This document shows, piece after piece, positions 18,481 through 60,676 of a stretch of DNA of 64,000 nucleotides (positions within the stretch are counted from its first letter, which is position 1; each line of letters begins with the position of its first letter). Made by a program: the position numbers and the translations under genes. Below the pieces are notes generated by a model, which saw nothing but the letters and a program-made list of their open reading frames with translations, made no database searches and was not told where the DNA came from. This DNA is from an uncultured Pirellulales bacterium. Lineage in GTDB: Bacteria > Planctomycetota > Phycisphaerae > Sedimentisphaerales > SM23-30. The stretch spans positions 38,904 to 102,903 of the forward strand of contig CAZOMV010000002.1 of assembly GCA_964580995.1 (NCBI GenBank), written 5' to 3'.

Positions 18481-18571
18481 TGACGCCAGCGTCAAAAGCT
18501 CGTTGTCCCCTTGTTATCGGGGCGCCAGAGCAGTTTTTGGAAGTCGATATTGACTTTTGGCGTTTCCGTCA
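18481..18571 (+). repeat. 91-bp dispersed intergenic element, copy 1 (the strand given is the hairpin-plus-T-run orientation)
   Basis: The sequence is tgacgccagcgtcaaaagctcgttgtccccttgttatcggggcgccagagcagtttttggaagtcgatattgacttttggcgtttccgtca. It aligns base-for-base with four other copies in the window. Confidence 0.9.
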
Positions 18572-18698
18572 GAAATAAGCAATTTTTTGGAGTTGAACCT
18601 TTCTTGCAAATTGCATGACCGGCGGTTATTGTAGGGCCTGACCAGGAGAGTGGCAGGCGGAGTATGGCCTGCCGGACTGGTTCGGAAAGAGAAGATGG

Positions 18699-18718
18699 AT
18701 TCCCGCCTGCGCGGGAAT
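18699..18718. repeat. REP-like GC hairpin ATTCCCGC-ctgc-GCGGGAAT
   Basis: It has a perfect 8-bp stem and lies 31 nt upstream of the dapL ATG. Its translation artefacts (DSRLRGND / IPAQAGIH) are typical of a widespread palindromic repeat type. Confidence 0.5.
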
Positions 18719-18748
18719 GACAGAGAATATGGAGAAGATGCGGCAGGT

Positions 18749-19978
18749 ATGATTACGATTAATGAGAATTTTATGAAGTTGAAGGCGGGGTATTTGTTTC
18801 CGGAGATCTCGCGGCGGGTGGCGGCGTATCAGAAGGAAAATCCGCAGGCGCGGATCATCCGGCTGGGGATCGGCGATGTGACGCTGCCGCTGCCGGCGGC
18901 GGTGATCGAGGCGTTCCACAAGGCGGTGGCGGAAATGGGGGAGGCCCGTACGTTCAAAGGATACGGGCCGGAGCAGGGGTATGATTTTCTGATTCAGGCG
19001 GTGATCGAAAACGATTTCCGGCAGCGCGGGGTGGAGCTGAAGGCCAACGAAGTCTTTATCAGCGACGGCTCGAAATGCGATACCGGCAATATTCAGGAGA
19101 TCTTCGGGTTACAGAATACCATCGCGGTTACGGACCCGGTGTATCCGGTGTATGTGGATACCAACGTGATGGCTGGACGGACCGGCCCGCAGAACAGCCA
19201 GGGCTGCTACGAAGGAATCGTCTATCTGCCCTGTACGCCGGCGAACCAGTTCACGCCGGAGCCGCCGGGTAAGCCGGTGGATTTGATTTATTTGTGTTAT
19301 CCGAATAATCCGACCGGGGCGGTGGCCACGAAAGAGGCGCTGGGCCGGTGGGTGGAGTATGCCCGGGCGAATAAGGCGATTATTCTGTTTGACGCGGCGT
19401 ATGAGGCATTTATCACGGATGCGGCGATTCCGCATTCGATTTACGAGATACCCGGGGCGAAGGAAGTGGCGATTGAATTCCGCAGTTATTCCAAGACGGC
19501 CGGATTCACGGGGACCCGGTGTGCCTATGCGGTGGTGCCGCAGGAATTGCACGCCTATACCCGGGCGGGCGAGAAGGTGGCGGTGAATCCGATCTGGCAC
19601 CGGCGGCAGACGACCAAGTTTAATGGGGTGTCGTATCCGGTGCAACGGGCGACGGAGGCGGCGTATTCGGCGGCGGGCAAGAGGCAGGTGCGGGCACTGG
19701 TGGATTATTATATGGAGAATGCCCGCGTCATCCGCACGAGCATGGAGCGGTTCGGCTATTGCGTCTATGGCGGGGTGAATGCCCCGTATATCTGGGTGAA
19801 GACTCCCAATGGGATTACCAGTTGGGGGTTCTTTGATAAGCTGCTGAAGGAGGCCCATGTGGTGAGCACGCCGGGGGCAGGTTTTGGCCCCTCGGGTGAG
19901 GGATTTTTGCGGCTGTCGGCATTCGGCCAGAAGGAAAATGTGCTGGAGGCCATGGATCGGATCGGGAAACTGGCGTAA
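18749..19978 (+). CDS. dapL: LL-diaminopimelate aminotransferase
   Basis: The start is placed at ATG 18749 because [24 protein letters not shown] is the canonical DapL N-terminus. The class I aminotransferase body includes the [16 protein letters not shown]-lysine region. Confidence 0.9.
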
Positions 19979-20016
19979 GGAATCGAGCATAACCATTTGT
20001 ATTTCAAGGGATTACT

Positions 20017-20046: not shown

Positions 20047-20070
20047 GCAAATTGTGTTATCTAGTACGGC

Positions 20071-29226: not shown

Positions 29227-29233
29227 TAGCGGG

Positions 29234-44762: not shown

Positions 44763-46127
44763 TCATGATTCAGTTTTCACTCCACTCACCAGCTGACCGG
44801 TGAGCATCTCGATCTCCGCTATCTTGATCTGCCGGTCCACCCGCGCCCGCTCATATTCCAACTGAAATTCCAGCAGCATCCGCACTGCGTCTATCAAATC
44901 TAGAAATTGCCCCTCTCCCGTCGCAAATTCCTGCTGGACCACCTGCAGCGCCTGCTCCGCCTTCGGTAGCAGCCCGTTCCGGTATAAATCCATCTTCCGC
45001 TCCGCATCCCGGTACTCATAGATCGCCACCCGCAAATCCGCCCCCAGACTCTTTTCCTCCTCGGCCCGCGCTTTCACCGCTGCCTGATACGCAAAATACG
45101 CCTCCCGCTCCGCCGCCCGGTATTTCCCCACCTGAATCGGCAATGTAATCCCCGCCATCCCCTCCAGCAGGTCATTCTCACTCATGGTGCCGGGCATGGA
45201 AGACTCGCGGGTATCCCTATAGGTCACCCCCAGCATGAAATCCGGATAATAATTCTTCTTCGCCAGCTCCCGTTCCTTCCGGGTCTTTTCAATCTCCGCC
45301 TCCAGCGCCGCCAGCTCCGGATTGCTGCTTCCCAGCGCCCCCAGCAGTTGCTCCTCCGCAAACGCCGCCTCTGTCTCCGGTAACGCCTCCGGCCAGGCCA
45401 GCGGCGCCTCCACCGCCCGGTTCATCGCCGCGTTCAGCTTCCCCGCCAGCGGCCCCTGCAAATCCCGCAGCGACCGCAGCCGGTCCTCCACCCGCCCGAT
45501 ATCCACCTGAAACCGCAGCATTGCCGCCTGTGAGCCGGTCCCGCTTTCGTACTTCATCCGCGCCGCCTCCTCCAGGCCCCGCAGCAGCACCAGGTTCTCC
45601 TCCGTTACCGCCAGCGACCGCCGCAGATAATAATACTCATAGTACGCGCTCTTCACCCGATAGGCAAGGGACAGCCTTTCGCTGGCATACTCCTGCTGCG
45701 CCCGCTGTGCCTCCGCTCCCGCCGCCTCCGCCCCCAGCTCCCGCTTGCCGAACCACGGCACACCCTGCGTCAGGCTATAACTCTGCTCCGCTCCCCCCAT
45801 CCGGCTTTCAATCTCCTTATTATAGGTATAAGCAAAACCGGGATCCGGCAGCGCCAGGGCCTGCGGTGCCTTCTCCAGCGCCGCCTTCCACCGCCAGTAC
45901 GCCGCCTCCAGTCCCGGATTATGCAGCGCCGCATATTCCAGACAGGCCGATAACTCAACCGGCCCGGAAAAATCCCCCGATTCCTCTTTTTCAACAGGAC
46001 CGGCTTTGATTCCAGCCGGTGGGGAGGGATATTCATTTGGAACAGGCGATACCCCGGAAGGGGAAGTGCAGCCACCCGCTAAAACGATCAGGAAAAGAGA
46101 GAAGCAAATTGGCTCAATTCGTTTCAT
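44763..46127 (-). CDS. TolC/CusC/CzcC-family outer-membrane efflux protein
   Basis: It has a lipoprotein-like N-terminus (LAGGC) and the two-fold repeated helical OEP pattern. It is the first gene of the efflux operon. Confidence 0.85.
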   Translation of the reverse strand: MKRIEPICFSLFLIVLAGGCTSPSGVSPVPNEYPSPPAGIKAGPVEKEESGDFSGPVELSACLEYAALHNPGLEAAYWRWKAALEKAPQALALPDPGFAYTYNKEIESRMGGAEQSYSLTQGVPWFGKRELGAEAAGAEAQRAQQEYASERLSLAYRVKSAYYEYYYLRRSLAVTEENLVLLRGLEEAARMKYESGTGSQAAMLRFQVDIGRVEDRLRSLRDLQGPLAGKLNAAMNRAVEAPLAWPEALPETEAAFAEEQLLGALGSSNPELAALEAEIEKTRKERELAKKNYYPDFMLGVTYRDTRESSMPGTMSENDLLEGMAGITLPIQVGKYRAAEREAYFAYQAAVKARAEEEKSLGADLRVAIYEYRDAERKMDLYRNGLLPKAEQALQVVQQEFATGEGQFLDLIDAVRMLLEFQLEYERARVDRQIKIAEIEMLTGQLVSGVKTES

Positions 46128-46317
46128 AATTCGCAGGATTTCCAGATAGTTCCGTAATACCTATCCAAACTAGTTTCCACTTCCGGTCCATCCGAAAAAG
46201 GGATAAGACAATTTTATAAAATGCTTTACAGAATAATGGTATGCCCCATCAGGAGCGAAGTCAAGCCAATTGTTGGCCGGATTTGGGATGGCCATCGGGG
46301 TGTAAAGAATCACCTAT

Positions 46318-46408
46318 TGATGGAAACGCCACAAGTCAATATGGACTTCCAAAAACAGCTCTGGCGCCCCGATAACAAGGGGACGACGAGTTTTTGACGC
46401 TGGCGTCC
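46318..46408 (-). repeat. 91-bp dispersed intergenic element, copy 2
   Basis: It aligns with copy 1 in reverse complement. It starts 18 nt after the stop codon of the 46426 gene and lies 190 nt upstream of the efflux operon start codon. Confidence 0.9.
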
Positions 46409-46425
46409 CTATTGGAGACGGCTTG

Positions 46426-47370
46426 TTATTTTTTCGATTGGGGTTTGTTTTTTAAATGCGTATCAAACCAGTCCGTGAAAACCTTTATGTCTTCTTCGGA
46501 TGTCCAGAAAAATCCCCAGCCATGCCCCTTGCCCTTACGCACCACCAATTCGGGAAGTTGGGCACCTGCCGCCCGCGCCTTCTCGATGAAAAGTTCCGAT
46601 TGCTGAAGGGGGACCACATCATCATGATCGCCGTGAATAATCACCACCGGCGGCAGATCGGCTGTGACAAAATAGGCGGGCGATATCTCCTTGCCGTATA
46701 TTTGCCGCTGGGCGGCGGTATCGGAACGAGGTCCGAAGGCCGCTTTCAAGCTCGACAAAACATTCATACCCACAGCATCCACACCGGGAGCACCCCAGTT
46801 CAAAAAATCGGTGGGGGGAAAGAACACCGCCGCCGCCGCCACCGCACTGCTCTGGCGATCCACCGGGTCGGGAGCCTCAGCAGGCCCCCTGGCCCCCTGC
46901 GTGGCGATCATCAAGGCCAGATGTCCGCCGGAACTGGAACCGGTGATTCCCAATCGTTCCGGATCGACGCTATACGCACCGGCATTGTACCGGATGAACC
47001 GGACCGCTCGATGGAGATCTTCTACTATTTCCGGGATCGTGAACTTGGGCTGCGAACTATGCACCACGGCAAATACGGTGTACCCCTTGTCCAGGAACCG
47101 CTTAATGGAGTCATAGTGGATCGTCACCATGTTGGGGGTATCACAGCTGGAGAGCCAGCCGCCGCTCACCAGGAAGATCACCCCGCACCCGTTGGCGGCC
47201 GTGGGCTGAAATACATCCAGGGTCAAACACATGCCGAATTTCCGCCCATAAATGACATCGCGGGTACGGGTATAGCCGGAAGTACTTTGCCCATTTTCAT
47301 CCGCCGCAAAAGCGACGGAACACCCCATCAACCAGATTACCGCGAAACGAACAAAATTTTGCATTTTCAT
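46426..47370 (-). CDS. Secreted alpha/beta-hydrolase (esterase/lipase-like)
   Basis: It has a signal peptide, an oxyanion region VIFLVSGGW, a nucleophile elbow GSSSGGHLA and a catalytic His region GKGHGW. Confidence 0.8.
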   Translation of the reverse strand: MKMQNFVRFAVIWLMGCSVAFAADENGQSTSGYTRTRDVIYGRKFGMCLTLDVFQPTAANGCGVIFLVSGGWLSSCDTPNMVTIHYDSIKRFLDKGYTVFAVVHSSQPKFTIPEIVEDLHRAVRFIRYNAGAYSVDPERLGITGSSSGGHLALMIATQGARGPAEAPDPVDRQSSAVAAAAVFFPPTDFLNWGAPGVDAVGMNVLSSLKAAFGPRSDTAAQRQIYGKEISPAYFVTADLPPVVIIHGDHDDVVPLQQSELFIEKARAAGAQLPELVVRKGKGHGWGFFWTSEEDIKVFTDWFDTHLKNKPQSKK

Positions 47371-47620
47371 TTTAATACCTTTCTGTAAAAAATATCTTAC
47401 CTTATGCTGGAAACGACAACATGTTATTTCCCCTTTTTTGCTCTGTCAAACAATATCGGATACCGCCAGACCGTCAGCTCCAGCAAAAGAATGGCCGTAC
47501 CCAAAATATAAATCGGCGCCACCACCTGCGAAAACGAAATCCGCCACCCTCCGTTTTTCCCCCCACCAGTTTTTCCTGCCGCCGCTTATGCCGGAGGCCT
47601 CCATGCGATAAATCCATTTT

Positions 47621-47711
47621 TGACGGAACCGCCAAAAATCGATATTGACAGCCAAAAACAGCTCTGGCTCCCCAATAACAAGGGGTCGAAGAGCTTTTGA
47701 CGCTGGCGTCA
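47621..47711 (-). repeat. 91-bp dispersed intergenic element, copy 3
   Basis: It aligns with the other copies and lies about 250 nt upstream of the 47370 start codon. A 44-bp box shared with copy 1 lies next to it. Confidence 0.9.
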
Positions 47712-47792
47712 TTTTTAACCATTTTTTAACCGTTTCCTCACCCCTTCTTTACAATTCCCGTCTATATTCCTTATAGAGAATGGAATGACAAA

Positions 47793-48044
47793 ATGATTCA
47801 CACGGAGAAAAATATGGTGACAGATACCCACTGGCTGAATAACGAAACGGCGGCTCAACTGTGTACCCTGCACTCCATCATCCACCAGACCGCCGACCAT
47901 ATCGAAGACGGCTGCTTCCACGAGGCCGCCCGCTGCCTGGAAGACTCCCTCGAGCAACTCATCCCCCTGATCCGCAACCTCCGCGACTGCTGTGCCGTAA
48001 CGGAGTATCCCATTCAGCCACCCCACCTGTACTACCTGGTGTAA
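47793..48044 (+). CDS. Hypothetical small protein (83 aa)
   Basis: The call rests on the ORF only. Its helical-looking composition is more protein-like than the overlapping antisense ORF at 47715..48026. No motif was recognised. Confidence 0.3.
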   Translation: MIHTEKNMVTDTHWLNNETAAQLCTLHSIIHQTADHIEDGCFHEAARCLEDSLEQLIPLIRNLRDCCAVTEYPIQPPHLYYLV

Positions 48045-48309
48045 GAAAGGGCTTCATTACCTCCATGTAGGAGCACACACATACACAGAAAGGGCCTCGC
48101 TATCTGGCCACTCATTATAACCGTCTTGAGTGGCCAGGGCCATTTCTGGCCCCCAACATCCTCTTTTTGGCCAAAAATAATACAAACATATAACACATAA
48201 GCATTTACAGCTATATTTCTGCAAAACTAGAGACAAAAACCAGGCCCCGTCCGATAAAATTAAACAAAAACATGTTGAATTTCGATGATGCCATCATTAA
48301 AATTACACC

Positions 48310-49545
48310 ATGTACCTCGAAAGATCGATTACCGCCAAACTGAAAAAGCTTGCCGAATACTTCCCCGCCGTAGTTGTCACCGGTGCCCGTCAGGTTGGCA
48401 AAAGTACCCTCGTAAAGCATGTTTTTGGCCAGCAGGCCGAATATATCCTGTTTGACTCTGTTTTCGCCGCGGAAAACGTCCGCCAGGAACCCGACCTTTT
48501 CCTGCAAAACCACCGCACCCCGCTCATCCTCGATGAAATTCAATATGCCCCCGAACTGGTTTCTTCCCTCAAACGGAAAATCGACCAGAACCGCTCCCCC
48601 GGCCAGTATATCCTGACCGGCTCCCAGCAATGGGCCGTCATGAAGTCCATCTCGGAAAGCCTGGCCGGCCGGGCTGTCTTTCTCGACCTGGAAGGCTTCA
48701 GCCTCCAGGAAATAGCGAAAAATTCCTCCGACTCCTGGCTGATGAAATGGCTGGCCGATCCGCAGGATTTCATCGCCGCCCCCAAAAACCGCCTCACGCT
48801 GGACAAACCGTTTTATGAACTCCTCTGGCGCGGCTCCCTCCCCGAAGCCGCCTTCCTGCCGCTTGATATAGTCCCTGATTTCCAGGCCGGCTATTTCCGC
48901 ACCTATATCGAACGGGATGCCCGGCAATTCGCCGACCTCTCCGACTGGAACCTCTTCGGCCGGTTTGTCAAACTCGCCGCCGCGCTCACCGCCCAGGAAA
49001 TCCACTTCAGCCAACTGGGACGAGAACTGGGCCTGACCCCCCAAACGGCCCGGCGCTGGCTGAATATCCTCAAAGCCACTTTCCAGTGGTTTGAAATCCC
49101 TGCCTTTTCCTCTAATCTCATAAAAAGAGTAAGCAGCAAACCCAAAGGCTATATCGCCGACACGGCTCTGATTTGCAACGCCCAGGCGATTACCACTCCC
49201 AATGTGATCGCTGGCCACCCCCTATACGGCGCCATCTTCGAAACCGCCGTAATCGCCGAAATCCGAAAACAATGCGCCCTGCTTCCCTCGCCCATTGCCA
49301 TGTATCATTGGCGGACCTACAGAGGAGCGGAAGTGGACCTCATCCTGGAAAAAGACGGCAAATATTTTCCCATCGAAATCAAAGCCAACAGCCGGCCCGC
49401 CCGCCGTGATACCAACGGCCTTTGCGCCTTCCGCAATGCCTATCCGAAACTCGACATAGCGCCGGGCTTGATCCTTGCACCCTGCCCGGCGTTCCTGAAA
49501 GTCTCAGACTCCGACTACGCCCTCCCCTGGGACACCTGCCTCTAA
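48310..49545 (+). CDS. AAA-family ATPase with DUF4143-type C-terminal domain
   Basis: Walker A is VVTGARQVGKST and Walker B is LILDEIQ. The layout is typical of AAA_14 plus DUF4143. Confidence 0.85.
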   Translation: MYLERSITAKLKKLAEYFPAVVVTGARQVGKSTLVKHVFGQQAEYILFDSVFAAENVRQEPDLFLQNHRTPLILDEIQYAPELVSSLKRKIDQNRSPGQYILTGSQQWAVMKSISESLAGRAVFLDLEGFSLQEIAKNSSDSWLMKWLADPQDFIAAPKNRLTLDKPFYELLWRGSLPEAAFLPLDIVPDFQAGYFRTYIERDARQFADLSDWNLFGRFVKLAAALTAQEIHFSQLGRELGLTPQTARRWLNILKATFQWFEIPAFSSNLIKRVSSKPKGYIADTALICNAQAITTPNVIAGHPLYGAIFETAVIAEIRKQCALLPSPIAMYHWRTYRGAEVDLILEKDGKYFPIEIKANSRPARRDTNGLCAFRNAYPKLDIAPGLILAPCPAFLKVSDSDYALPWDTCL

Positions 49546-49560
49546 ACGGCTCACCGCCGC

Positions 49561-51363
49561 TTATTTCTGTTCCGGCCCTTTCCGCCGAATCTCCAGATAG
49601 ACATCCTCCAACTGTTTGAGATCCACGCCCGCCGGCGCTTCACTTAGCAGACACTGCCCCTTCTGCGTCTTCGGAAACGCGATCACATCCCGGATATTAT
49701 CCGTACCCGTCAGCAGCATGATCAGCCGGTCCAGACCCCAGGCGATCCCGCCATGCGGCGGAGCGCCGTACTGCAGCGCCTTCAGGAAAAATCCGAACCG
49801 CTCTTCCGCCTGCTCCCGGCTGATCCCCAGCAGATCGAATATCTTCGCCTGTAGCTCCGGCTGATGAATACGAACACTCCCGCCGGCTACCTCGTTCCCA
49901 TTTAAAATAATATCATATGCCTGCGAACGAACCTGGTGCGGATCCTGATCCAGCAGCGGGATATCCTCCGGCAGCGGCGCCGTAAACGGATGATGCAGGC
50001 TGTCCCACCGGTTCTCGTCCTTGTTGAACTCCATCAGCGGAAAATCAATCACCCACAGAAAATTATACTGATCGTCCCGCGCCAGCCCCAGCTCCGCCCC
50101 CAGCCGGCAACGCAGCGGCGCCAAGGCCTTATTCACCGTCGCCTCATCCGCCGCCACCAGCAGTATCAAATCGTTCAGCTTCGCCCCGAACCGGCCGATG
50201 ATCTCCTGCCGCTGCTCCGGCGTGAAAAACTTCGCAATGCTGCTCATCAGCTCCAGCCCCGTCCCCTTTTCATCCGCCACCACCTTCATCCACGCTAAAC
50301 CCCGTGCCCCATACTGCCCCACAAAATCCGTGAATCCCTTCTCAATATCGCTCCGCGAATATTTCTCCCCGCCGCCCGGCGCGCACAGCCCTTTCACAAT
50401 CCCCTTACTCTTGATCGCGTTCAAAAACACACCAAACTGGCACTGGGCGGCGATATCGGTAATATTCTTCAGCCGCATCTCAAATCGCGTGTCCGGCCGG
50501 TCAATTCCATAATCATCCACCGCCTGCTGATAACCCATCCGCTGCAGCGGCAGCGGGATTTCCACCCCCAGAATCTCCTTGAATACCAGTGCAAAACATT
50601 TCTCCGTCAGGTCCATAATATCATACATATCGATGAAGCTCATCTCCACGTCGATCTGCGTAAACTCCACCTGCCGGTCCGCCCGCGCATCCTCGTCCCG
50701 GAAACACCGGGCAATCTGGAAATACCGGTCCATTCCGCTCACCATCAGGATCTGCTTGAACAACTGCGGCGACTGCGGCAGCGCATAAAACGAACCGGCC
50801 GATAACCGCGAGGGTACCAGAAAATCCCGCGCCCCTTCCGGTGTGCTCTTGGCCAGAATCGGCGTCTCAATCTCATAAAAACCGTTCTCCTGGTGATACT
50901 TCCGCACCAGCGAAGTCACCCGGTTCCGCACCCGCATGATATGCTGCATCTGCGGCCGCCGCAAATCGATATACCGGTACTTCAGCCGCAGCTCCTCCCC
51001 GATCTTTTCCGTCGAATCAATCTCAAACGGCGGCGTCAGCGCCTTATTGAAAATCTCCAGCTCGCAGACCAGTATCTCAATATCCCCCGTCGGCATCTTC
51101 GGATTCTCCATCCCCGCCGCCCGGTGCCGCACCTTGCCGCGCACCCCGATCACCCACTCCGTCCGCAGCGACCGGGCCTGCTCGTGCATTTTCGGATTAT
51201 TTTCCGGATTGAACACCAACTGGGTCAGACCATTGCGGTCCCGCAGATCAATGAACACCACCCCGCCATGATCCCGGTACGACTGCACCCACCCCGCCAG
51301 CACCACTTCTCTGCCTTCGTCCTTCGCCCGCAACTCACCGCAATTGTTTGTCCGTTTCAACAT
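49561..51363 (-). CDS. aspS: Aspartate--tRNA ligase (probably non-discriminating, given GatCAB)
   Basis: It has an OB-fold N-terminus (VVLAGWVQSYRDHGGVVFIDLRDRNG) and class II motifs (FRDED, GGSVRIH, GLDRL). Confidence 0.95.
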   Translation of the reverse strand: MLKRTNNCGELRAKDEGREVVLAGWVQSYRDHGGVVFIDLRDRNGLTQLVFNPENNPKMHEQARSLRTEWVIGVRGKVRHRAAGMENPKMPTGDIEILVCELEIFNKALTPPFEIDSTEKIGEELRLKYRYIDLRRPQMQHIMRVRNRVTSLVRKYHQENGFYEIETPILAKSTPEGARDFLVPSRLSAGSFYALPQSPQLFKQILMVSGMDRYFQIARCFRDEDARADRQVEFTQIDVEMSFIDMYDIMDLTEKCFALVFKEILGVEIPLPLQRMGYQQAVDDYGIDRPDTRFEMRLKNITDIAAQCQFGVFLNAIKSKGIVKGLCAPGGGEKYSRSDIEKGFTDFVGQYGARGLAWMKVVADEKGTGLELMSSIAKFFTPEQRQEIIGRFGAKLNDLILLVAADEATVNKALAPLRCRLGAELGLARDDQYNFLWVIDFPLMEFNKDENRWDSLHHPFTAPLPEDIPLLDQDPHQVRSQAYDIILNGNEVAGGSVRIHQPELQAKIFDLLGISREQAEERFGFFLKALQYGAPPHGGIAWGLDRLIMLLTGTDNIRDVIAFPKTQKGQCLLSEAPAGVDLKQLEDVYLEIRRKGPEQK

Positions 51364-51382
51364 AAACCGTTCTGCTTTCTCA

Positions 51383-52978
51383 CTAATTTTTCTTTTCCAT
51401 CATCTCTTGTAACAAACTTCGTCCGTCAAACCGGTACTCGCCCAGCTTGCGGCCATCCAGCATCTCTATCACCGTCGGCGCCACATCCACCGTCCGCCCC
51501 GCCGGTATCACACGGCCCGGCTCGATCCCCGGCCCCGAAAACACCATCGGTACCAGCATATCCGCCGCCGCCGCACTGCCGTGCCCCCCCACATTGCTCC
51601 GGTCAAAGTCCCACCCCTCCCGGGCAAACACCAGCAAATCGCCGGCCCGGTACGAATCGAACACCTCCGCTATCTGCACCGGCAAATCCGGATATTCACT
51701 CTGCACCGTCCCCGCCAGCCACTCCGCCCCGCTCCGAAAACCACCATCCGGCTGGCCCATTCCGCGCAGCGTAACATCATAGCCCAAAGGGTCCGCCCCG
51801 TCAATAACCTCATACCGGTATTGTTTCTCACTCAAACTCTCCCCCGCCGCCCCCCGCCGCTCAATCCACCCCTTCCCCAGCCGGTTTTCCACCCAAACAC
51901 CACCCTCCCCGTCCGGATACGCCGTCAGACACACCGCCTCCTGACCCGCCAAAAACCGCGCAATCGGCCCGGCCTTTTCCTGCCCCGCCGCCGCCGACCA
52001 GTCCTCCCCGTTCCGCAGATACACCATCGCCCGCCGGAACCCCCCGTTCACCAGCACCGCGTCATACCCCCGGAAATACGCCGCCCGCTCCCCAAAACTC
52101 TCCATCCGGCCCGGCCCTTCGCTGGCCACCCGCAGCCCAAATTCCCCGCCGATCAATTCCGCAATATCAATATAGTTCTCTTTCTTACACCCAGCCATCC
52201 CATGATCCGACACCAGCACCAGATACGTCCGCTCCAGCAGCCCGCTGGCCTCCAGCGCCGCCCCAATCCGCCCGATCTGCTCATCCACATTCCGCAGCGA
52301 CCGCCGATATTCCGCCGAATCCGGACCATACCGGTGCCCCATCTCATCCATTGCCGGAAAATACGCAAATATCAGATCCGGCCACCGCCGCGCCTCCCGC
52401 GCCATCTCCCCAATCAAATAAAACCGCTCCGCCGTCAGACAGTCGATCTCCCGGATTTGCCCAAAATACCACCGTATCCCCGACGACGCCCAGTTGTCAA
52501 TCTTACGATACACTCCCCGCCGCACCGGTATCTGGATCGTCACGCTGAACTTGTCATCCAGTATCTCGTACATCGTCGGGCACCGATAATCATCATCCAC
52601 ATCCCGATACGTCTTAATCGTATTGTAATCCGCATAAAACAACCGCTTCCGGTCAAAAAACTTATTCCCCAATACCCCATGATGGCCCGGCACCTGCCCC
52701 GTCGCCAAACTCGTGCTTACTGCATAGGTAATCGACGGAACCGTCGTCACCCCATACTCCACGCTGCACCCCCGCTCCACCAGATACTTCGCAATCCCCG
52801 GCAGCTCTCCCCGCCCCAGCATCTCCCGATACACCTGCCGGTTCATCCCATCCACAAAAAACACCACCGCCGCCCGCTCCGGCACCGCCACTGTATCATT
52901 GATTAACGAGACGGGCTTTAGCCGACCACAACCGGATGCGTACAACAGAATCAAAAACCCAATATATAGTTTACGCAT
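51383..52978 (-). CDS. Alkaline-phosphatase-superfamily protein (type I phosphodiesterase/nucleotide pyrophosphatase-like)
   Basis: Metal and nucleophile motifs are VVFFVDGM, PSITYAVSTSLATG, MDEMGHRYGP, LVSDHGM and GGHG. Confidence 0.8.
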   Translation of the reverse strand: MRKLYIGFLILLYASGCGRLKPVSLINDTVAVPERAAVVFFVDGMNRQVYREMLGRGELPGIAKYLVERGCSVEYGVTTVPSITYAVSTSLATGQVPGHHGVLGNKFFDRKRLFYADYNTIKTYRDVDDDYRCPTMYEILDDKFSVTIQIPVRRGVYRKIDNWASSGIRWYFGQIREIDCLTAERFYLIGEMAREARRWPDLIFAYFPAMDEMGHRYGPDSAEYRRSLRNVDEQIGRIGAALEASGLLERTYLVLVSDHGMAGCKKENYIDIAELIGGEFGLRVASEGPGRMESFGERAAYFRGYDAVLVNGGFRRAMVYLRNGEDWSAAAGQEKAGPIARFLAGQEAVCLTAYPDGEGGVWVENRLGKGWIERRGAAGESLSEKQYRYEVIDGADPLGYDVTLRGMGQPDGGFRSGAEWLAGTVQSEYPDLPVQIAEVFDSYRAGDLLVFAREGWDFDRSNVGGHGSAAAADMLVPMVFSGPGIEPGRVIPAGRTVDVAPTVIEMLDGRKLGEYRFDGRSLLQEMMEKKN

Positions 52979-52984
52979 CGCTTT

Positions 52985-53788
52985 TTACCGGTTGAAATAT
53001 TTCAAAATCCCCTCAGCCAACACCTCCGCCACCTTCGCCCGGTAATACGCCGAATTCAACCGCTGCGCATCCGTATAATTCGTCATATACCCGCACTCCA
53101 CCAGCACCGCCGGACGACTATGCTCCACCAGCACCTTAAAATCCCCATGCTGAATCCCTCTGACCTCAAACCCATTCCGTTCAAAGACTTCGCGAATACA
53201 ATGCGCCGCCTTCCGGCTGGCATCCGACGCCTCCCGGCAGATATAAATGGTCACACCCGATATACTGCTGTTCTTCGAGGCATCCGCGTGAATCGCCACA
53301 AACAAATCCGCCCGCGACCGTTCGGCCACTGCCGCCCGCTCTTCCAGCTCAATAAACCGGTTATTCCGCCGCGTGGCCATGACATTGACCCCCTCCTGCT
53401 CCAGCTCGTTCATCGTCTTCAGCGCAATGTCCAGCACAATCTCTTTTTCCGCCATTCGCGAAACCCCATTCGCCGGTGCACCCGGATCCCTGCCCCCATG
53501 ACCCGCGTCGATCACCACCGTACCGTTCATTACCGGTTCTTCCCGCGGATTCGATGGGACGACCGGCGTAGTGGTTCCACCCCCCGTTCTGCTTTTGGTC
53601 CTGGGGATCGGGTGCTCATACCCGTTATCCACCCGCGTCACCGTCGTTTTCCCCCCGCCGCCCGGCCCCACGCATCCGGCCATACCCAATATCAGGAACG
53701 CCCAGATTGGCAGCAGGTAAAAAAAGTACGATTTTGCCCCCCTCAACCCAGTAAACACTTTTATAGTCTGTACTTTTGACATAAACAT
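52985..53788 (-). CDS. N-acetylmuramoyl-L-alanine amidase (Amidase_3)
   Basis: Motifs are VVIDAGHGGRDPGA, EKEIVLDIA, FVAIHADA and VLVECGYMTN. Confidence 0.85.
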   Translation of the reverse strand: MFMSKVQTIKVFTGLRGAKSYFFYLLPIWAFLILGMAGCVGPGGGGKTTVTRVDNGYEHPIPRTKSRTGGGTTTPVVPSNPREEPVMNGTVVIDAGHGGRDPGAPANGVSRMAEKEIVLDIALKTMNELEQEGVNVMATRRNNRFIELEERAAVAERSRADLFVAIHADASKNSSISGVTIYICREASDASRKAAHCIREVFERNGFEVRGIQHGDFKVLVEHSRPAVLVECGYMTNYTDAQRLNSAYYRAKVAEVLAEGILKYFNR

Positions 53789-53928
53789 CGCTACTTCTTA
53801 TCGGATTATCCCCCGCTTATAAAGGGAAAAATACCTATTTTACCCCATAAATACTGCCGCCCCGATCTGGACCTTCCAAACCGACCCTATATCTCCCTCA
53901 TCAATTCGCTCAGACTCCCCTCTCCAGT

Positions 53929-54228
53929 TTAATACAGCGGAAAACCAAAATCATCGCCCACCCCCGACAGCACGGATTGGCTATATCCTTCCACCGTGAC
54001 CGATTTGGTATCCTCGTCAATAAACAGGCACAAACCATGAATCGAACAATGATCGTACTTCATGCCTTTCCCTTCCACCTTCCCCTGCGACCGGTACCCC
54101 TTGTCCCGCGCAAATTTCTTGGCATTGTGCAGGTGGATACTGTCAATCCGATGCTCGCCCTCCCCCAGCTTCTGATTTAACGTCGCCACCCGCCACACCA
54201 TACTATACTTCTTTCCCGATCTGTCCAT
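53929..54228 (-). CDS. Hypothetical protein (99 aa)
   Basis: The call rests on the ORF only, and no motif was recognised. Confidence 0.4.
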   Translation of the reverse strand: MDRSGKKYSMVWRVATLNQKLGEGEHRIDSIHLHNAKKFARDKGYRSQGKVEGKGMKYDHCSIHGLCLFIDEDTKSVTVEGYSQSVLSGVGDDFGFPLY

Positions 54229-54466
54229 AAGACCATCCTTTCCCAGTGCTGCTGGTTTATTCCGTATCGAACGTAACTACCGGACCGATGGGCCGGTTTG
54301 GATCCTGGCTGATGGGCAATTGCTTGAGCGATTCAAGAAAAATACGTGAACTTAGATGCTTTCCCTCTATCATAAGACGTTCAAACGGAAATTGCAACAA
54401 AATATTTCAGCACGGGCACAGGGAATGCCCCCTCGTTTGCGGACAAGAACAGAATGAAAGGACCGG

Positions 54467-54868
54467 TCAGAAGGTATGGCACGGAACCTGAAGCTGGCGG
54501 ATCGCCTCTGGCACACGAGCGCAAATCTCAAAAAACGAATCCAGCCGCGCCACCTTGAATATCTCATGAACATAGCGGTCGTCAGGGGTATTGATCACCT
54601 TCTGGTTCACCCCGCAGAGGATGAGCCGGCCATGCCCCTTCTCCACCATCTTCTTCAACTCCAGCAGACAACCTAATACCATAGACGAGATCGACTGCAC
54701 ACGCGAAAAGTCCACAATCAGGTTTACCCCCTCATCCTCCGCCAGCGGATAGATCGTCTCCTGAAGCCGTAAAATCAGGGATACATCCAGCAGCTCCCCG
54801 GGCTGGGGCGTAACTACCGTGGCACTCCCGAAATATTCAATCGCAACAATCGGTTCATTCAAATTCAT
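54467..54868 (-). CDS. STAS-domain protein (anti-sigma-factor antagonist-like)
   Basis: It has the SpoIIAA-like pattern (LIVDFSRVQSISSMVLGCLLELKKMVEKGHGRLILCGV...EIFKVARLDSFFEI). Confidence 0.75.
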   Translation of the reverse strand: MNLNEPIVAIEYFGSATVVTPQPGELLDVSLILRLQETIYPLAEDEGVNLIVDFSRVQSISSMVLGCLLELKKMVEKGHGRLILCGVNQKVINTPDDRYVHEIFKVARLDSFFEICARVPEAIRQLQVPCHTF

Positions 54869-55182
54869 TCTTCTTTTTTCTTTCCAAACCGCTAACGGAA
54901 TAATAGAGCCATACGTATAAGATTATTTCTCGAAAATGGTTGAGATGATTTTCGGAAATAATAGATGCCTAGCCACCATCTTGCAAAACTTCCCTTATTC
55001 ACATAGTGTAAAATATAATTCCGGAAAAAGCCATTTACACCCACAATTTTTTCTGGCAATCTGGGCAATCTGTACCTGTTATACCGCCAATTTCCCCAAA
55101 TTTTTTTTATCGGCCCACATCCCCATATCAGGCTGTTTGCTATTGGATTCCTTTTTTCCGCCCTATACTCATTTTTAGCCTT

Positions 55183-56067
55183 TTAGTTCTTTTGTATCTC
55201 ATCAGGATGACCCAGGATATAACCACCGGGAATCGATGGCGTAAAAGTATCACCGGGCAGTTCGTCATTATAGCGGAACTCATTTTGGATCGTGGTAAAC
55301 GTTATTTCGGGGTGGTCAGTAACGGGTCTTCCCTGCTGTTCAATGACTACCGGAAGTTTGCTCTCCACGTCAAACCAGATTTCGTCAATCCATGGTTCCG
55401 GATTGTCTCCATAGGTACTGGCGGGAATCGCAAAGCCCATGCAATCGGCCCCGTCGATCGGTTTCGTTCCCAGGAGCTTGGCTGTGCGATCCAGATACTG
55501 TAAATAGAAACGTACTTGATCCATAGGATTTTGCGTGCCGAAACTTCCGGAATGTCTTTCGACAAAATAAGAACCTAAATCGTAACGAATGCTATATTGC
55601 AGCATTCCGTCTCCGTCCGGAACATACCATTGGATCTCGCGCAAGGTCTCTCCATCATAAATATCTCTGCGGTAACTATCCGGAGAATAGTAAAGAACAT
55701 CCCAGGTGCTTGACGGATGCTGGGAACCATCCGCATTTACAAATATAGTCCGCTCACAGCAGGAAACTCCCTGTATGGTTGCAAGTGCGGACCGGATCTC
55801 CTCCGCCCATACCATGCTGGTTCTGCCCATGGAACCGTTAAAAAGGTTTATCCCCAACAGAATGACCATCACCATCACCACCGCGGCGGCATATTTAGGT
55901 ATTCGACTTTTCATAAGAGTTCTCCATCTGAAAATACCGGGTATGCTTTGCGGCTCTTGGTTTCTTTGCATCTCGAATGCATCCTCAAGTACCTTGCTTT
56001 GCATCTCCGGCCTTGGTTGGACATGAAATTCGGCAACAACTTTTTGCATATCTTTAAGGGATTTCAT
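55183..56067 (-). CDS. Putative membrane-anchored anti-sigma factor / sigma-associated protein
   Basis: Its start codon overlaps the stop codon of the upstream ECF sigma gene by 4 nt. It has a single TM helix (AAAVVMVMVILLGINLF) and a periplasmic domain of unknown fold. Confidence 0.55.
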   Translation of the reverse strand: MKSLKDMQKVVAEFHVQPRPEMQSKVLEDAFEMQRNQEPQSIPGIFRWRTLMKSRIPKYAAAVVMVMVILLGINLFNGSMGRTSMVWAEEIRSALATIQGVSCCERTIFVNADGSQHPSSTWDVLYYSPDSYRRDIYDGETLREIQWYVPDGDGMLQYSIRYDLGSYFVERHSGSFGTQNPMDQVRFYLQYLDRTAKLLGTKPIDGADCMGFAIPASTYGDNPEPWIDEIWFDVESKLPVVIEQQGRPVTDHPEITFTTIQNEFRYNDELPGDTFTPSIPGGYILGHPDEIQKN

Positions 56068-56606
56068 TGGTTCACCTCACTGTGTAACAGGGACCTTAAC
56101 TTTTCCAGACCATACCGATACCGGCTTCGAATGGTATTGACGGAAGTACTTCGTAATTTCGCAATTTGGGTAAATTTCATACCGCCCTGCACGTGCAGAA
56201 CGACAATTTCCCGCTGCTCATATGGCAACTGCGCTATGGCCCAATTCACTTTGACCGTTTCTTCGTTCTGGGTCGCCAGCACCTCCGGTTCCCAATTCGC
56301 CGATGCCCTAGGTTCCTCTCCCTCGAAACCCGGCGGCTCCAGCCGCCTTCGCTTGATTCGATTGCGGGCCAGGTTGGCGACACAGGTTGCCAGATACGAC
56401 TTAAAATTACCCTGGAGGTGGATCCGGTCCGCCAACTTCACAAAGGAAAGGAAAAAGTCATGAAGCACGTCTTCCGCATCATGCGTGTTATTTAAAAGGG
56501 CCGTTGCCACCGTGATCAGGTAGGTTTCATATTTTTCATAAATTCTTTCCAACGCCTCGCGGGATCCATGCTTGAACTTCCATAAAAGTATCTTGTCTTC
56601 GAACAT
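56064..56606 (-). CDS. ECF-type RNA polymerase sigma-70 factor
   Basis: Region 2 (DAEDVLHDFFLSFVK) and a region 4 HTH (MKFTQIAKLRSTSVNTIRSRYRYGLEKLR) are present. Confidence 0.85.
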   Translation of the reverse strand: MFEDKILLWKFKHGSREALERIYEKYETYLITVATALLNNTHDAEDVLHDFFLSFVKLADRIHLQGNFKSYLATCVANLARNRIKRRRLEPPGFEGEEPRASANWEPEVLATQNEETVKVNWAIAQLPYEQREIVVLHVQGGMKFTQIAKLRSTSVNTIRSRYRYGLEKLRSLLHSEVNQ

Positions 56607-56816
56607 CCAAACCTCACCGGCTATACCTGAGAATGATCATCCTTCACTACATACACAATTGAAGAGCCTGTTTCAGTCTATTTTTTTGAAATATTTGGAA
56701 TGGTACCCATTTTTATGCCGTAAAACAGAAAAAAGACAAGTGCCCGCCTCATCTCCACAGGACAGGCAATCCGCTTCGTTTGCGAGCCTGCTCGCTCGGA
56801 GTTCCGCCTTCAAACT

Positions 56817-56907
56817 AGACGGAACCGCCAAAAGTCGTTATTGACTTCCAAAAGCAGCTCTGGCTCCCCAATACCAAGGGATCGACGAGCTTTTGACGCT
56901 AGCGTCA
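56817..56907 (-). repeat. 91-bp dispersed intergenic element, copy 4
   Basis: It aligns with the other copies. It lies 210 nt upstream of the sigma gene start codon and about 200 nt after the stop codon of the 57109 gene. Confidence 0.9.
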
Positions 56908-57108
56908 AACTATACTTTTCATGTGTCCGGGCGGGAGGGGGTACTGAATAGGATTTGCCGGAGCGGAAATATTTTGACAGCCAGGCTGGTCGAGGATTAT
57001 AAAAAACTAAACTTTTGCAAAGTAGAGAAGGTTTTCAAACTCCACTGGGCAGATGAAATAAGGGGCGGTTCCTAGCCGCCGGCCTGCAAGGGTTCCTCGT
57101 GCGGCCGC

Positions 57109-59082
57109 TTACGGAACGGCACCCAGCGTTTCCTGGGCTTTCTGCTGAATACCGTCATTTTTTGATTTCTCAATCACCCTTTGCAGCACTTGCCGGCGCT
57201 GCTCCTTGGAAATCCCGCTGATATCTTGGCTGGCAATCTGGACCATGGCCGCGTACGCTTCCTCGGCGACTGCCGGGGTATCCGCGAATGTCGTTAATAG
57301 CTCCAGGGTCTTGGCGCTCGGCGCTTCCCCGAGGACGGCAATGGCCTGCTGCCTCTCTTCGGCCCGCTTGATGTAGGATTGCACCTCTTCCACCCGGGCC
57401 GCTTTTTGTTCGTTACTGAGTTTCTTATTGCCGCGCAGGTACTGAAGGTAACCGCGCAGTCCCAGCACCTTATGGGCCAGCTTATCCGCCGATGTGACGA
57501 CTACCAGTAGGGCTTGCCCTGCCTCCTCGTCTTCCGGCCAGTTGTTCGGCCACGTCGATAAGATGCGCACCGCCTCATCTTGAAGGGCAGCTTTCGTGCT
57601 CGCCATGGCGGATTTGACAGCCGCCAGTGCCTCCGGTCCGCCGACAATAGCCAGCGCGTGCAACCCGATGATACGGAGCCCGGAGTCAGGACTCTGGGCC
57701 AGGGGTTCCAAATGGGAGATACACTTTATGCCGCAACGGCCGCAAATCGCTTGCAGAGCCTTTTCGATATCCGCCCGTTCTTCGGCATTCTGTGTTTTTA
57801 GCAGCAACTGGACCAGATCGTCCGTTTGCGGATCCTGCCCGAGGATGCCCACGGTTTGCAGGGCCGCGCGGCGAATCCCGGCATCGCCGTCTTGCAGGCT
57901 TGGCACAACAGCCGCCAGGGCCTCACCAATCGGTCTCTGGCCCGCCAGCTGAATGAGCACCCGCTTCACGTTGCCTTCCGCTGACGGTAAACGGCCGATC
58001 AGATCGGCATCCACCTCGTTACCAGGCAGTCTGAGCAGCGTTTCCATGGCCGCCTGTTCCAGCTCCGCATCGTTCTCCCCCGCCGCCTCCAGCAGGATCG
58101 GAATACACGAAACATCACCCAGGCGATTCAGGATCTGGATGGCTGCGATGCGCAGGTCTTTCGGGCCATTTTGCGCTTCCCGCAGAACAATCGGCAATAC
58201 CGCCGCATCACTGCGGTCCGCCAGGGCCAATAACAGCAGGGGACCCCGGTCCGGACTTAAACGGGCCAATTCTTCGGCCAGGGCCTCGGTCACATCACGG
58301 CCGCCAAGCTCACGGGCCGCACGCAAACCAATATCGAATCGGTTTTCATCTTCCGAACGCAACTGTTCCAGCAGCAGCGGAATGCCGGCCGATTGGCGCG
58401 CCAGAATAGCCCCGCGGATGGCTTCCAAACGTCTCTGGTCGGGCACATCCGCCTGGCGGACCATATCGTACATCGTGGCCGCTTCGGCGGCCTTGTCGCG
58501 CGCCAGAAATCCCTCGGCACAGAGTATGCAGCCTTCCGCCGCCGCCGAACGAACACCGGCTGACGCCCCCGCCAAAAATTGAGTCAGTACTTTGCCCGCC
58601 TGTTCACCGCCGATGTGCCCCAATGCCACCGCGGCCGCCGAGGCAACGTCCGGATTGGTATCGCCGAGTTTCTGCGCCAGCGCCTCGACCGCCTGGCCAT
58701 CGCGGCGCACGCCAATCGAATTGATCACTCCCACCAGCAGCCGGCCCTCCAGCCGGCCCAGCGCGTTACGCAAGGCCGCATCCGCCGCCGGCCCGGGAAT
58801 CGCTTCCAGTGCAATCCGTGCCCACGAGGTCAACTCTTTGTCTTCCAAGAGCGGCGCAAGGGCGGCAACAGCCTCTTCGCCGCCATAAATGGCCAGCCGC
58901 TTACAGGTGATGGCTTTCTCCGCCTGGGGGGCATCTGACAGCAGCACGGCAATCAAGTCGCTTTGCTTCACGTCCCCAGCCGGCTGTCCCTGGACCGCGG
59001 CCCCGGCCCACGCAGTAACGATGATGAATATAACACACCAGATGATATGTACTTGGTTCAGTTTCATGATGGTCCTCGTCAT
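57109..59082 (-). CDS. Membrane-anchored or secreted HEAT-repeat protein
   Basis: It has many ARM/HEAT-like units (LLxDxDxxVRxAAxxALGxIGG pattern) and an N-terminal hydrophobic segment. The start is 59082 or 59067; the ORF track start at 59124 would overlap the upstream gene. Confidence 0.75.
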   Translation of the reverse strand: MTRTIMKLNQVHIIWCVIFIIVTAWAGAAVQGQPAGDVKQSDLIAVLLSDAPQAEKAITCKRLAIYGGEEAVAALAPLLEDKELTSWARIALEAIPGPAADAALRNALGRLEGRLLVGVINSIGVRRDGQAVEALAQKLGDTNPDVASAAAVALGHIGGEQAGKVLTQFLAGASAGVRSAAAEGCILCAEGFLARDKAAEAATMYDMVRQADVPDQRRLEAIRGAILARQSAGIPLLLEQLRSEDENRFDIGLRAARELGGRDVTEALAEELARLSPDRGPLLLLALADRSDAAVLPIVLREAQNGPKDLRIAAIQILNRLGDVSCIPILLEAAGENDAELEQAAMETLLRLPGNEVDADLIGRLPSAEGNVKRVLIQLAGQRPIGEALAAVVPSLQDGDAGIRRAALQTVGILGQDPQTDDLVQLLLKTQNAEERADIEKALQAICGRCGIKCISHLEPLAQSPDSGLRIIGLHALAIVGGPEALAAVKSAMASTKAALQDEAVRILSTWPNNWPEDEEAGQALLVVVTSADKLAHKVLGLRGYLQYLRGNKKLSNEQKAARVEEVQSYIKRAEERQQAIAVLGEAPSAKTLELLTTFADTPAVAEEAYAAMVQIASQDISGISKEQRRQVLQRVIEKSKNDGIQQKAQETLGAVP

Positions 59083-59111
59083 TTGAGGGGGTTCTTTGGA
59101 ATAATCGAACA

Positions 59112-60392
59112 TTAAATCCGCCACGGTTCCCGCAAGGCCTCCGACCGCAGCCGATTGGCCTGCTCGTCGCCAATGAATTCGTTCTTCTTCGGGTCATACT
59201 GGAGTTTGCGATTGAGGTACAGGGCGATGTTGGCCGCATGGCAGGCAATATGCCCCCAGCAGGCCACCTCCGCATTGGCCCGGGTCAGGCCCCGAGTCTT
59301 GATACAATCGAGAAAATTACGCACGTGAAAATCGGCCGGGTACCCCGGTATCTTCTTGCCTCTGAGCATCAACAGGGACGGTGAACTCGCCGCGGACTCC
59401 GCATCGTCACCGGTCTCTATCCAGCCCGTTTCCCCTTCGAACCGCACCGGGCACGAACCCAGCGGCAGCCATCCGTCGTTCCGCATAACCAGTTTAACCC
59501 CATTGGCATAGCGGGCATGCAGTTGGCCGTTCACCGGTTCATACTCCACCGGCGCTGTGTCATCGGCGTGGTTGGCCCACTGGCACAGGTCCACGCAATG
59601 CGAGCCCCATTCCAGGCACCCGCCGCCCACCAGCCCGCCGCCTTTTTCAAAATGAAAGGCGTTCATGAGCGCCCCATTATAAGGCCGCCAGGCGGCCGGC
59701 CCCAGGTACATATCCCAGTTTACCTGCTCCTGGGGCGGTTCCGGTTCCGCCGGGAACCAGCCGCTCATATCGCACCCCAAACCGCCGGGATGGGCGTGAA
59801 GAGTTTGCAGCGGACCGAGTTTACCGGTCCGGGCCAGCTCGATCGCATGGGCGAAATTGGGCAGGCTGCGGCGCTGCGTGCCCGCCTGGAACACCCGGCC
59901 CGTCCGGCGAAAAACCTCCGCCAGCGCCAGGCTCTGGGCAATATTCTTCGTGCAGGGCTTTTCGCAATAGACATCTTTGCCCGCCTTGGCCGCCATCGTG
60001 GCCGCCGTCGCGTGCCAGTTCGGCCCCGTCGCAATCAGCACCGCGTCAATATCCTCGCGGGCCAGCAGCTCCCGCATATCCGCATAGGTCACACAGTCTG
60101 TATTGCCGTAATACGCATCGACCATCTCCTTGGCACGCTGGCGATTGTCCGCCCGCACATCGCAGACGGCCACACACTGCAAATCCGTCTGCTGCAGGAA
60201 GCACCCCAGCACATACCGGCCGCGATTGCCGATCCCGATGGCCCCCAGCGTGATCCGTTCGCCGGCTGCCGCTCCGCCATTCTTGCCCAACGCCGTGCCC
60301 GGGATGATTTGCGGCACCGCCAGACAGACACCCGCCTGCACCGCCGTTTTAAGAAACCCCCGCCGGCTTAAGCCAACTTGTTCTTTGCTCAT
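59112..60392 (-). CDS. Gfo/Idh/MocA-family oxidoreductase with twin-arginine signal
   Basis: It has a TAT motif (SRRGFLKTAV), a Rossmann motif (LGAIGIGNRGRY) and a family-typical C-terminal domain. Confidence 0.9.
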   Translation of the reverse strand: MSKEQVGLSRRGFLKTAVQAGVCLAVPQIIPGTALGKNGGAAAGERITLGAIGIGNRGRYVLGCFLQQTDLQCVAVCDVRADNRQRAKEMVDAYYGNTDCVTYADMRELLAREDIDAVLIATGPNWHATAATMAAKAGKDVYCEKPCTKNIAQSLALAEVFRRTGRVFQAGTQRRSLPNFAHAIELARTGKLGPLQTLHAHPGGLGCDMSGWFPAEPEPPQEQVNWDMYLGPAAWRPYNGALMNAFHFEKGGGLVGGGCLEWGSHCVDLCQWANHADDTAPVEYEPVNGQLHARYANGVKLVMRNDGWLPLGSCPVRFEGETGWIETGDDAESAASSPSLLMLRGKKIPGYPADFHVRNFLDCIKTRGLTRANAEVACWGHIACHAANIALYLNRKLQYDPKKNEFIGDEQANRLRSEALREPWRI

Positions 60393-60585
60393 ACCTGATC
60401 TCCTGCTGAATCAATTCGAGGCATACCTTGCATCCGTAATCCCCCATAAAAATTGCAAAACCATCTGTTTGCCAAATATGAATCTGCGTTTCTGTTCCAT
60501 ACCGCCCACTGTACAAAGGTCCGGATTCAAAAACAACCCTCCTTTTCCCCTTCCCGCAAAATTTTGCTGGAAAATTCCCTATTCT

Positions 60586-60676
60586 TGACGGAACCGCCAA
60601 AAGTCGATATGGACATCCAAAAATGGCTCTGGCTCCCCAATAACAAGGGAACGACGAGCTTTTGACGCCGGCGTCA
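60586..60676 (-). repeat. 91-bp dispersed intergenic element, copy 5
   Basis: It aligns with the other copies. It lies 193 nt upstream of the 60392 start codon and 80 nt after the stop codon of the 60757 gene. Confidence 0.9.

Follow-up and report, generated by a model that had tools for sequence, protein, structure and literature searches.

Five intergenic units of 91 bp lie in a 64,000-nucleotide stretch of contig CAZOMV010000002.1 from an uncultured Pirellulales bacterium (hereafter the window). They are very probably copies of a non-autonomous DNA transposon, a MITE (short for miniature inverted-repeat transposable element). The family to which they belong is mobile, previously undescribed and ordinary in kind. 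A first-pass annotation of the window had listed five units between genes, each exactly 91 bp long, and all five were confirmed at their coordinates, with copy 1 on the + strand and copies 2 to 5 on the - strand. They are given here with the short direct repeats (duplications) at their edges.

18481-18571, + strand, MITE copy 1, 91 bp; duplication GAAA at 18477-18480 and 18572-18575
46318-46408, - strand, MITE copy 2, 91 bp; duplication CTAT at 46314-46317 and 46409-46412
47621-47711, - strand, MITE copy 3, 91 bp; duplication TTTT at 47617-47620 and 47712-47715
56817-56907, - strand, MITE copy 4, 91 bp; duplication AACT at 56813-56816 and 56908-56911
60586-60676, - strand, MITE copy 5, 91 bp; imperfect duplication TTCT/TCCT (3 of 4 bases)

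When the five copies were compared in pairs, 75 to 84 of the 91 bases were identical (82-92%). A 21-mer of the left end, searched with up to 3 mismatches, matched five times in the window and was not found in 100 shuffles. The four-part anatomy described in the annotation is present in the sequence. A 14-nt perfect palindrome, TGACGC-NN-GCGTCA, stands at one end and the quasi-palindrome GTCnATATnGAC at the other, the termini can pair, and an internal hairpin (GCTC/CCCC...GGGG/GAGC) is followed by GTTTTTGG. The left end reads TGACGCCAGCGTCAAAAG and the right end, read inward, TGACGGAACCGCCAAAAG. The termini form imperfect inverted repeats of 18 bp with 14 of 18 positions matching (positions 1-18 against the reverse complement of 74-91). 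The element has a G+C content of 52% and no coding capacity, 91 bp being too short for a transposase. A profile search with nhmmer found no further full copy in the window. One match to the right end was seen without the rest of the element, just past a PHO4 transporter gene, and looks like a truncated remnant.

37231-37249, - strand, solo right-end remnant ACTTTTGGCGTTTCCGTC; matches copies 1 and 2 at 18/18 positions of their right end

Copies outside the window were collected with two scans. The genome collection was scanned with an internal pattern, which led to 24 contigs of one metagenome-assembled genome (MAG), 'Planctomycetota bacterium UR.bin216', bearing 32 copies; the other matches were due to chance and lacked the element. 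The metagenome collection was scanned with the left end. This gave 91 contigs, for the most part of activated-sludge and anaerobic-digester origin, on which about 65 full copies were counted. After removal of identical insertions, the window, the MAG and the metagenomes together gave 83 independent insertions. The exact length of 91 bp was found in 64 of these 83 copies, the mean identity to the consensus was 91%, and the terminal pairs were kept in about 90% of the alignment cells. Judged by eye from the alignment, position 1 of the element is T, A or G in about 40, 40 and 15% of the copies and the last base is A in about 85%.

The flanks were then compared at the exact edges of the element, with mismatched flanks as a control. 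In the window and the MAG, 16 of 34 copies had a perfect 4-bp duplication, compared with 1.6% in the control (P ~3e-20), and none of the 34 could be extended to 5 bp. Among all 83 insertions the duplication was perfect in 41 and agreed at three of four bases in 16 more (control 2.1% perfect), with an extension to 5 bp in three cases. Read in the orientation of the element, the window duplications are GAAA, ATAG, AAAA and AGTT for copies 1 to 4 and AGGA/AGAA for copy 5, and 26 different tetramers were duplicated among the insertions. The target is A/T-rich with the consensus A|AWWW, an A being present at position -5 in 77% of the copies. The flanks have 34% G+C, compared with 54% for the window, and 82 of the 83 copies are intergenic.

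Two sites in the window were found empty where related DNA carries a copy.

3166-3169, empty site, AATA present once and overlapping the stop codon (TAA) of gene 2541-3170; filled in L121
53932-53935, empty site with a single ATAC; filled in the orthologous loci L096 and L114

The metagenome locus L121, which is 83-86% identical to window positions 1617-4053, bears a 91-bp copy with AATA on either side, and both L096 and L114 bear one with ATAC on either side. The annotation had considered a MITE among other options and had proposed target-site duplications and presence or absence between relatives as a check. The 41 perfect duplications among the 83 insertions, the two precise window sites that are filled in relatives and the copies in other genomes all support that option. 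For copies 2, 4 and 5, empty sites were sought through homologues of the flanking genes. The loci L142-L147 had no copy (L147 by pairwise alignment), but synteny breaks or spacers too diverged to align precluded the identification of an empty site. Since the relatives L142-L146 (73-91% nucleotide identity) carry no copy in 4-21 kb each, the distribution of the family is patchy. The nearest named homologues of two window proteins belong to MAGs labelled Sedimentisphaerales, Phycisphaerales or Planctomycetes, which places the window in Planctomycetota and probably in the class Phycisphaerae.

Insertion of the MITE occurs by a staggered cut at A/T-rich targets that leaves the 4-bp duplication, and a DDE-type transposase that binds the common ends would mobilise the element in trans. 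Ends of the type TG...CA together with a 4-bp duplication are compatible with several DDE families (IS3/IS407 group, IS21 and IS481). Because an A/T-rich target is chosen in a genome of 54% G+C, almost all copies are found between genes and often at or just past stop codons.

The features of prokaryotic MITEs have been reviewed (PMC10969869) for families such as Correia, ERIC, RUP, Nezha and MITEAba12. Of these features we found the size, the inverted repeats, the duplication and dispersed copies with presence and absence between relatives. Like the known MITEs, the 91-bp element is shorter than 500 bp, has no open reading frame (ORF), ends in inverted repeats, is flanked by direct repeats derived from the target, and occurs in many dispersed copies at A/T-rich intergenic targets, with stem-loop folding and clusters in one intergenic region. 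Unlike them, it is not A/T-rich, each of its ends is palindromic, its length is fixed across subfamilies with unrelated interiors, and its copies are polarised to the GC skew. It matches no described family, and its end sequences are printed in no paper of the searched literature. The review (PMC10969869) includes no MITE from Planctomycetota and does not mention orientation.

Sister subfamilies with the same ends and unrelated interiors were observed on other contigs, and they likewise carry 4-bp duplications. Nine subfamily representatives could be aligned without gaps at 91 bp (one has 90 bp). They have in common only positions 2-21, the T-run at 53-58 and positions 72-82, of which positions 2-21 had been chosen by the search pattern, so that conservation there is not independent evidence. 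A variant of about 150 bp is present in L063, L080 and L112. Because the subfamilies with the same ends have unrelated interiors, the interior, including the internal 'terminator' hairpin, appears to be dispensable for the element. The conserved blocks, that is the ends and the central T-run, would together with the fixed length serve transposition and not gene regulation.

Conserved ends could also be explained by dispersed sites for a DNA-binding protein of the host (TGACGC-N2-GCGTCA), kept for regulation and not spread by transposition. The perfect 14-nt palindrome, the quasi-palindrome and the conservation of positions 2-21 and 72-82 in every subfamily would fit such sites, but a transposase would equally require conserved ends. 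The palindrome was always found within the full 91-bp unit with its duplication, whereas alone it has only one chance-level match in the window. The empty and filled sites show that the whole unit is inserted, and no common function was seen among the neighbouring genes. We therefore regard dispersed binding sites as scarcely credible.

The internal hairpin allows another reading, namely co-option of the MITE as a mobile intrinsic terminator or as a stabiliser of 3' untranslated regions, similar to the SPRITE repeat and possibly acting in both directions. The hairpin lies between an A-run and a T-run (CAAAAG-GCTC..CCCC-loop-GGGG..GAGC-CG-TTTTTGG), is followed by TTTTG on the reverse strand, and has folding energies of -15.9 and -17.8 kcal/mol for the two strands. 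In addition, gene ends are often close to the copies. When the 64 gene 3' ends that face a copy were measured, 29 were within 10 nt of it (median 17 nt), and 22 spacers had a close 3' end, compared with about 10 of 41 expected under uniform placement. The stop codon is often inside the duplication. In some insertions the first base of the element was seen to complete the stop codon of the upstream gene.

However, the stem consists of two 4-bp helices split by a 5x5 internal loop, whereas an intrinsic terminator was defined here by a T-run that directly follows a G+C-rich stem of 5 or more pairs. In a terminator scan of window positions 46000-61000, the internal hairpin was called in none of the four copies present there; only the terminal palindrome next to T-rich flanks was reported, in two copies. 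The fold z-scores were only weak (-1.7 to -2.3; -1.1 to -2.3 over all folds), and the sister subfamilies have the same ends without the hairpin. The orientation of the copies relative to the abutting gene end was 17:12. The A|AWWW target accounts for the short distances to stop codons, which are in part also an artefact, since the terminal TGA of the element closes ORFs. We conclude that a terminator function, also as a weak bidirectional side-role, is unlikely and that none of the observations requires it. SPRITE is a pneumococcal terminator-like repeat (PMC10969869) and, should the 91-bp element act as a terminator, would be its nearest counterpart in function. As far as its description allows the comparison, it is likewise a small dispersed repeat with a hairpin and a T-run, often at gene ends. 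It differs from the 91-bp element in that the hairpin here is weak, interrupted, variable across subfamilies and uncalled by the terminator scan, and in that the host phylum is unrelated.

The position of the copies relative to genes was analysed first in the window. Copy 1 lies between the divergent genes for a Cthe_2159/LTD protein (- strand) and an aminotransferase (dapL, + strand). Copy 2 follows the stop codon of an esterase gene by 17 nt and lies upstream of the gene for an OEP efflux protein. Copy 3 is located between the divergent genes for the esterase (- strand) and for an AAA_14/DUF4143 ATPase (48310-49545, + strand). Copy 4 is found 201 nt past the stop codon of a HEAT-repeat gene and upstream of an extracytoplasmic function (ECF) sigma factor gene, and copy 5 lies 80 nt past an aminotransferase stop codon and upstream of the gene for a Gfo/Idh/MocA oxidoreductase. 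In the Pfam scan, the neighbours were assigned to an aminotransferase (dapL-like), an OEP efflux protein, a BD-FAE esterase, an ECF sigma factor and a Gfo/Idh/MocA oxidoreductase. The annotation had noted three copies after a co-directional stop codon, in agreement with these distances. It had placed all copies 178-250 nt upstream of a start codon, which holds for copies 2 to 5 (190, 250, 210 and 193 nt), whereas copy 1 is at about 78-178 nt, depending on the start of dapL. It had also described copy 1 as the only one between divergent genes; this is right for copy 1 but overlooks the ATPase gene to the right of copy 3, which is the real gene there and not an ORF of the - strand.

According to the annotation, the hairpin with its T-run always points toward the next start codon. 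In the window all five copies are indeed co-oriented with the gene on their 3' side, but beyond it this was not observed. The gene on the 3' side was co-oriented in 43 of 71 cases, which is not significant, and that on the 5' side in 36 of 71; of the copies between co-directional genes, 17 were in sense and 11 in antisense orientation. The copies were present in divergent (19), tandem (28) and convergent (13) spacers, and the distance to the facing start codon ranged from less than 10 to more than 600 nt with a median of 126. An orientation linked to genes was rejected on the 83 insertions.

These results bear on a possible structured noncoding RNA or cis-regulatory leader upstream of controlled genes. 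In its favour are the window copies, all co-oriented with the next gene and 78-250 nt upstream of it, and the prediction, on the basis of the five copies, of a three-way fold at -24.7 kcal/mol. With 83 copies, however, RNAalifold gave only -0.16 kcal/mol and 6 pairs. The annotation had proposed covariation as a check for a conserved RNA structure, and for both candidate structures, the three-way fold and the hairpin model, the covariation measures were indistinguishable from shuffles. Rfam gave no match at the gathering score for the whole window or at E<=1 for 46250-47780. The convergent and antisense placements also argue against a leader, and the neighbouring genes are functionally unrelated. 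The structured-RNA or leader reading is largely refuted, and we give it next to no chance. With no covariation, no Rfam match, only a weak fold z-score, no terminator call and an orientation of 43:28, the regulatory and structured-RNA options of the annotation were not borne out. Randomness of orientation and position, which the annotation had named as the result that would speak against them, was found in part. The copies are intergenic, often at stop codons and strand-polar, and this non-randomness concerns the target and the DNA strand, not the downstream gene.

The strand polarity was evident from neighbouring copies on one contig, which were co-oriented in 18 of 19 pairs (8 of 8 at less than 400 bp and 10 of 11 farther apart). 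This was also the case on contigs with genes in both directions, such as L028 and L007. The sole discordant pair consists of copies 1 and 2, which straddle the sign change of the window's GC skew near 31 kb. Spacers with two or three copies, 50-210 bp apart and always head to tail, were observed in L044, L046, L054, L007, L014, L101, L115 and L064.

We then compared the orientation of the copies with the GC skew of their +/-2.5-kb flanks, after all copies had been masked and four orthologous duplicates dropped. Of 72 insertions, 54 had the element's forward strand on the G-rich strand (P=2.6e-5), with 5 of 5 in the window, 20 of 27 in the MAG and 29 of 40 in the metagenomes. Where |skew| exceeded 0.15, this was the case in 17 of 20. 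No link was found between orientation and the net coding strand (36/75) or the AT skew. A detection bias was rejected as the cause, since two seed patterns of opposite G/C content gave the same direction. The contribution of the coding strand to the skew within contigs is small (0.024), and therefore the skew is mainly regional. At the element-bearing loci the GC skew was seen to be strong (0.1-0.25) and regional, with genes on both strands of a contig sharing its sign.

About 65% of the coding bases are on the locally G-rich strand. The G-rich strand is usually equated with the leading strand, and the preference of the coding bases fits this without proving it. We infer that the polarity of the copies reflects the direction of replication, and the 5/5 co-orientation with genes in the window is probably a side effect of the shared direction of genes and GC skew there. 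The polarity could arise from oriented, fork-coupled insertion or from purging of one orientation. As a tentative proposal, MITE insertion may be coupled to the replication fork with a strand polarity of about 75-95%, in a phylum without a reported orientation bias of insertion sequences, or the element may be a strand-polar signal whose wrongly oriented copies are purged. If insertion is fork-coupled, the transposase would tell the two slightly different ends apart and insert the element one way relative to the fork.

For insertion sequences (IS), an orientation that correlates with the sign of the local GC skew has been described (Gomez et al. 2014, PMC3971601). In that study transposase genes were scored and a bias was seen in several DDE families (IS3, IS30, IS256 and ISL3); it reached significance chiefly in Firmicutes, and outside Proteobacteria, Actinobacteria and Firmicutes no IS family was biased. 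The GC-skew proxy is the same as ours, whereas the element here is a gene-less one of 91 bp in Planctomycetota. Since it contains no gene, selection on transposase expression cannot cause its polarity.

An orientation relative to the replication fork would follow naturally if the element were moved as single-stranded DNA by a tyrosine HUH transposase (RAYT or TnpA), as a palindrome like those of the repetitive extragenic palindromes (REP/BIME) or one derived from IS200/IS605. HUH elements insert beside a fixed short target and are not known to duplicate it, whereas the 91-bp copies have variable 4-bp duplications at their exact edges and both empty sites have a single tetramer. To our knowledge, no target duplication is known for REPs. 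No RAYT-like multi-copy ORF was found in the fetched element-bearing DNA. The palindromic ends with GACG/CGTC and the strand polarity of the copies speak for single-strand transposition, as does the finding that IS200 and IS200/IS605 have the strongest replication-orientation bias among the IS families (PMC3971601). Di Nocera et al. (2013, PMC3733652) described REP families tagged with CGTC, which are likewise intergenic palindromes with CGTC/GACG for which no adjacent transposase was found. They are, however, single stem-loops of 20-40 bp with 8-9-bp stems and an unpaired tag, whereas the element here has 91 bp, true inverted repeats and a 4-bp duplication. Taken together, a REP-like or IS200/IS605-derived origin is very unlikely.

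Several observations weigh against the MITE reading. An autonomous IS with matching ends was not found in about 0.5 Mb of element-bearing DNA, in plasmid records or in viral contigs. In the fetched DNA, pairs of end motifs 0.2-4 kb apart enclosed no ORF of the size of a transposase; they corresponded only to neighbouring MITEs and an unrelated contig. When the ORFs of 90 element-bearing loci were compared all against all by BLASTP, no multi-copy ORF family was obtained, and among the 30 window proteins scanned with Pfam none had a transposase domain. BLASTN against the plasmid records gave no match. In the viral contigs, a 19-mer of the left end matched only one unrelated phage-like locus and the right end matched nothing. 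Half of the copies lack a perfect duplication, although imperfect duplications are expected in older copies. Each end is itself a palindrome or quasi-palindrome, which is unusual for the ends of DDE transposons. Moreover, the polarity takes the local GC skew, measured on short contigs, as a stand-in for the direction of replication, and the gene calls at the loci are approximate, having been made with our own caller based on ORFs and codon scores.

Some matches to the end sequences were set aside. A 24-mer identical to the left end of the MITE, TTTTGACGCCAGCGTCAAAAGCTC, with an internal palindrome of 20 bp whose 9-bp arms flank CA, was seen in an unrelated context in seven metagenome and eleven viral loci. 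These are not MITE copies; the 24-mer is conserved upstream of a terminase small-subunit gene in phage DNA of the Firmicute type.

L094, L057, L081, L108, L109, L116, L141 and L148-L158, loci with TTTTGACGCCAGCGTCAAAAGCTC in phage-like contigs

The same phage-like contigs also carry ParB-methyltransferase genes, and one of them was present at 1172x coverage in a bioreactor. Another locus, L052 (1-11103), was rejected as it looks like a eukaryotic repeat-rich contig. There, 14 palindromes of the form TTTTGACG-N4-CGTCAAAA were seen inside a dispersed repeat of about 120 bp. The contig has few ORFs, (CA)n and a 14-bp minisatellite and is probably eukaryotic.

Further observations concern the remainder of the window. 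A low-G+C island is located at 10001-14000 (0.38, compared with 0.54 for the window). The ORF at 10872-13715 (+ strand) encodes a KAP-family P-loop NTPase of 947 amino acids fused to leucine-rich repeats, possibly a horizontally acquired, defence- or STAND-like gene. The block 55163-57032 contains an ORF of 294 amino acids without a Pfam match, the ECF sigma gene and copy 4, and is missing from the otherwise collinear relative L096 as an indel of 1.9 kb. From its position, we guess that the 294-amino-acid ORF encodes an anti-sigma factor. The relative L142 (GCA_029573975.1, 91% nucleotide identity) has a different gene upstream of the oxidoreductase gene, with 73% identity to the window's 471-amino-acid ORF at 34957-36372, which has no Pfam match. 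The synteny break falls into the spacer with copy 5 (window 60393-60756).

From the short-read run SRR13723397, three Logan contigs of the window's own genome were recovered; exact look-up of the proteins otherwise gave one JGI contig without DNA. Both contigs that reach a copy end inside one, namely in copies 2 and 5; the contig L159 terminates within copy 5. Such assembly breaks at the copies are consistent with a high copy number. The copies break short-read assemblies of these Planctomycetota, and the family should be masked or annotated, so that it is not confused with regulatory motifs or RNA genes. Planctomycetota have no listed MITE in the searched literature, and the family provides one with good support. 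If fork coupling or strand purging is true, this gene-less element would be a clean reporter of how DDE transposition or chromosome polarity reads the direction of replication.

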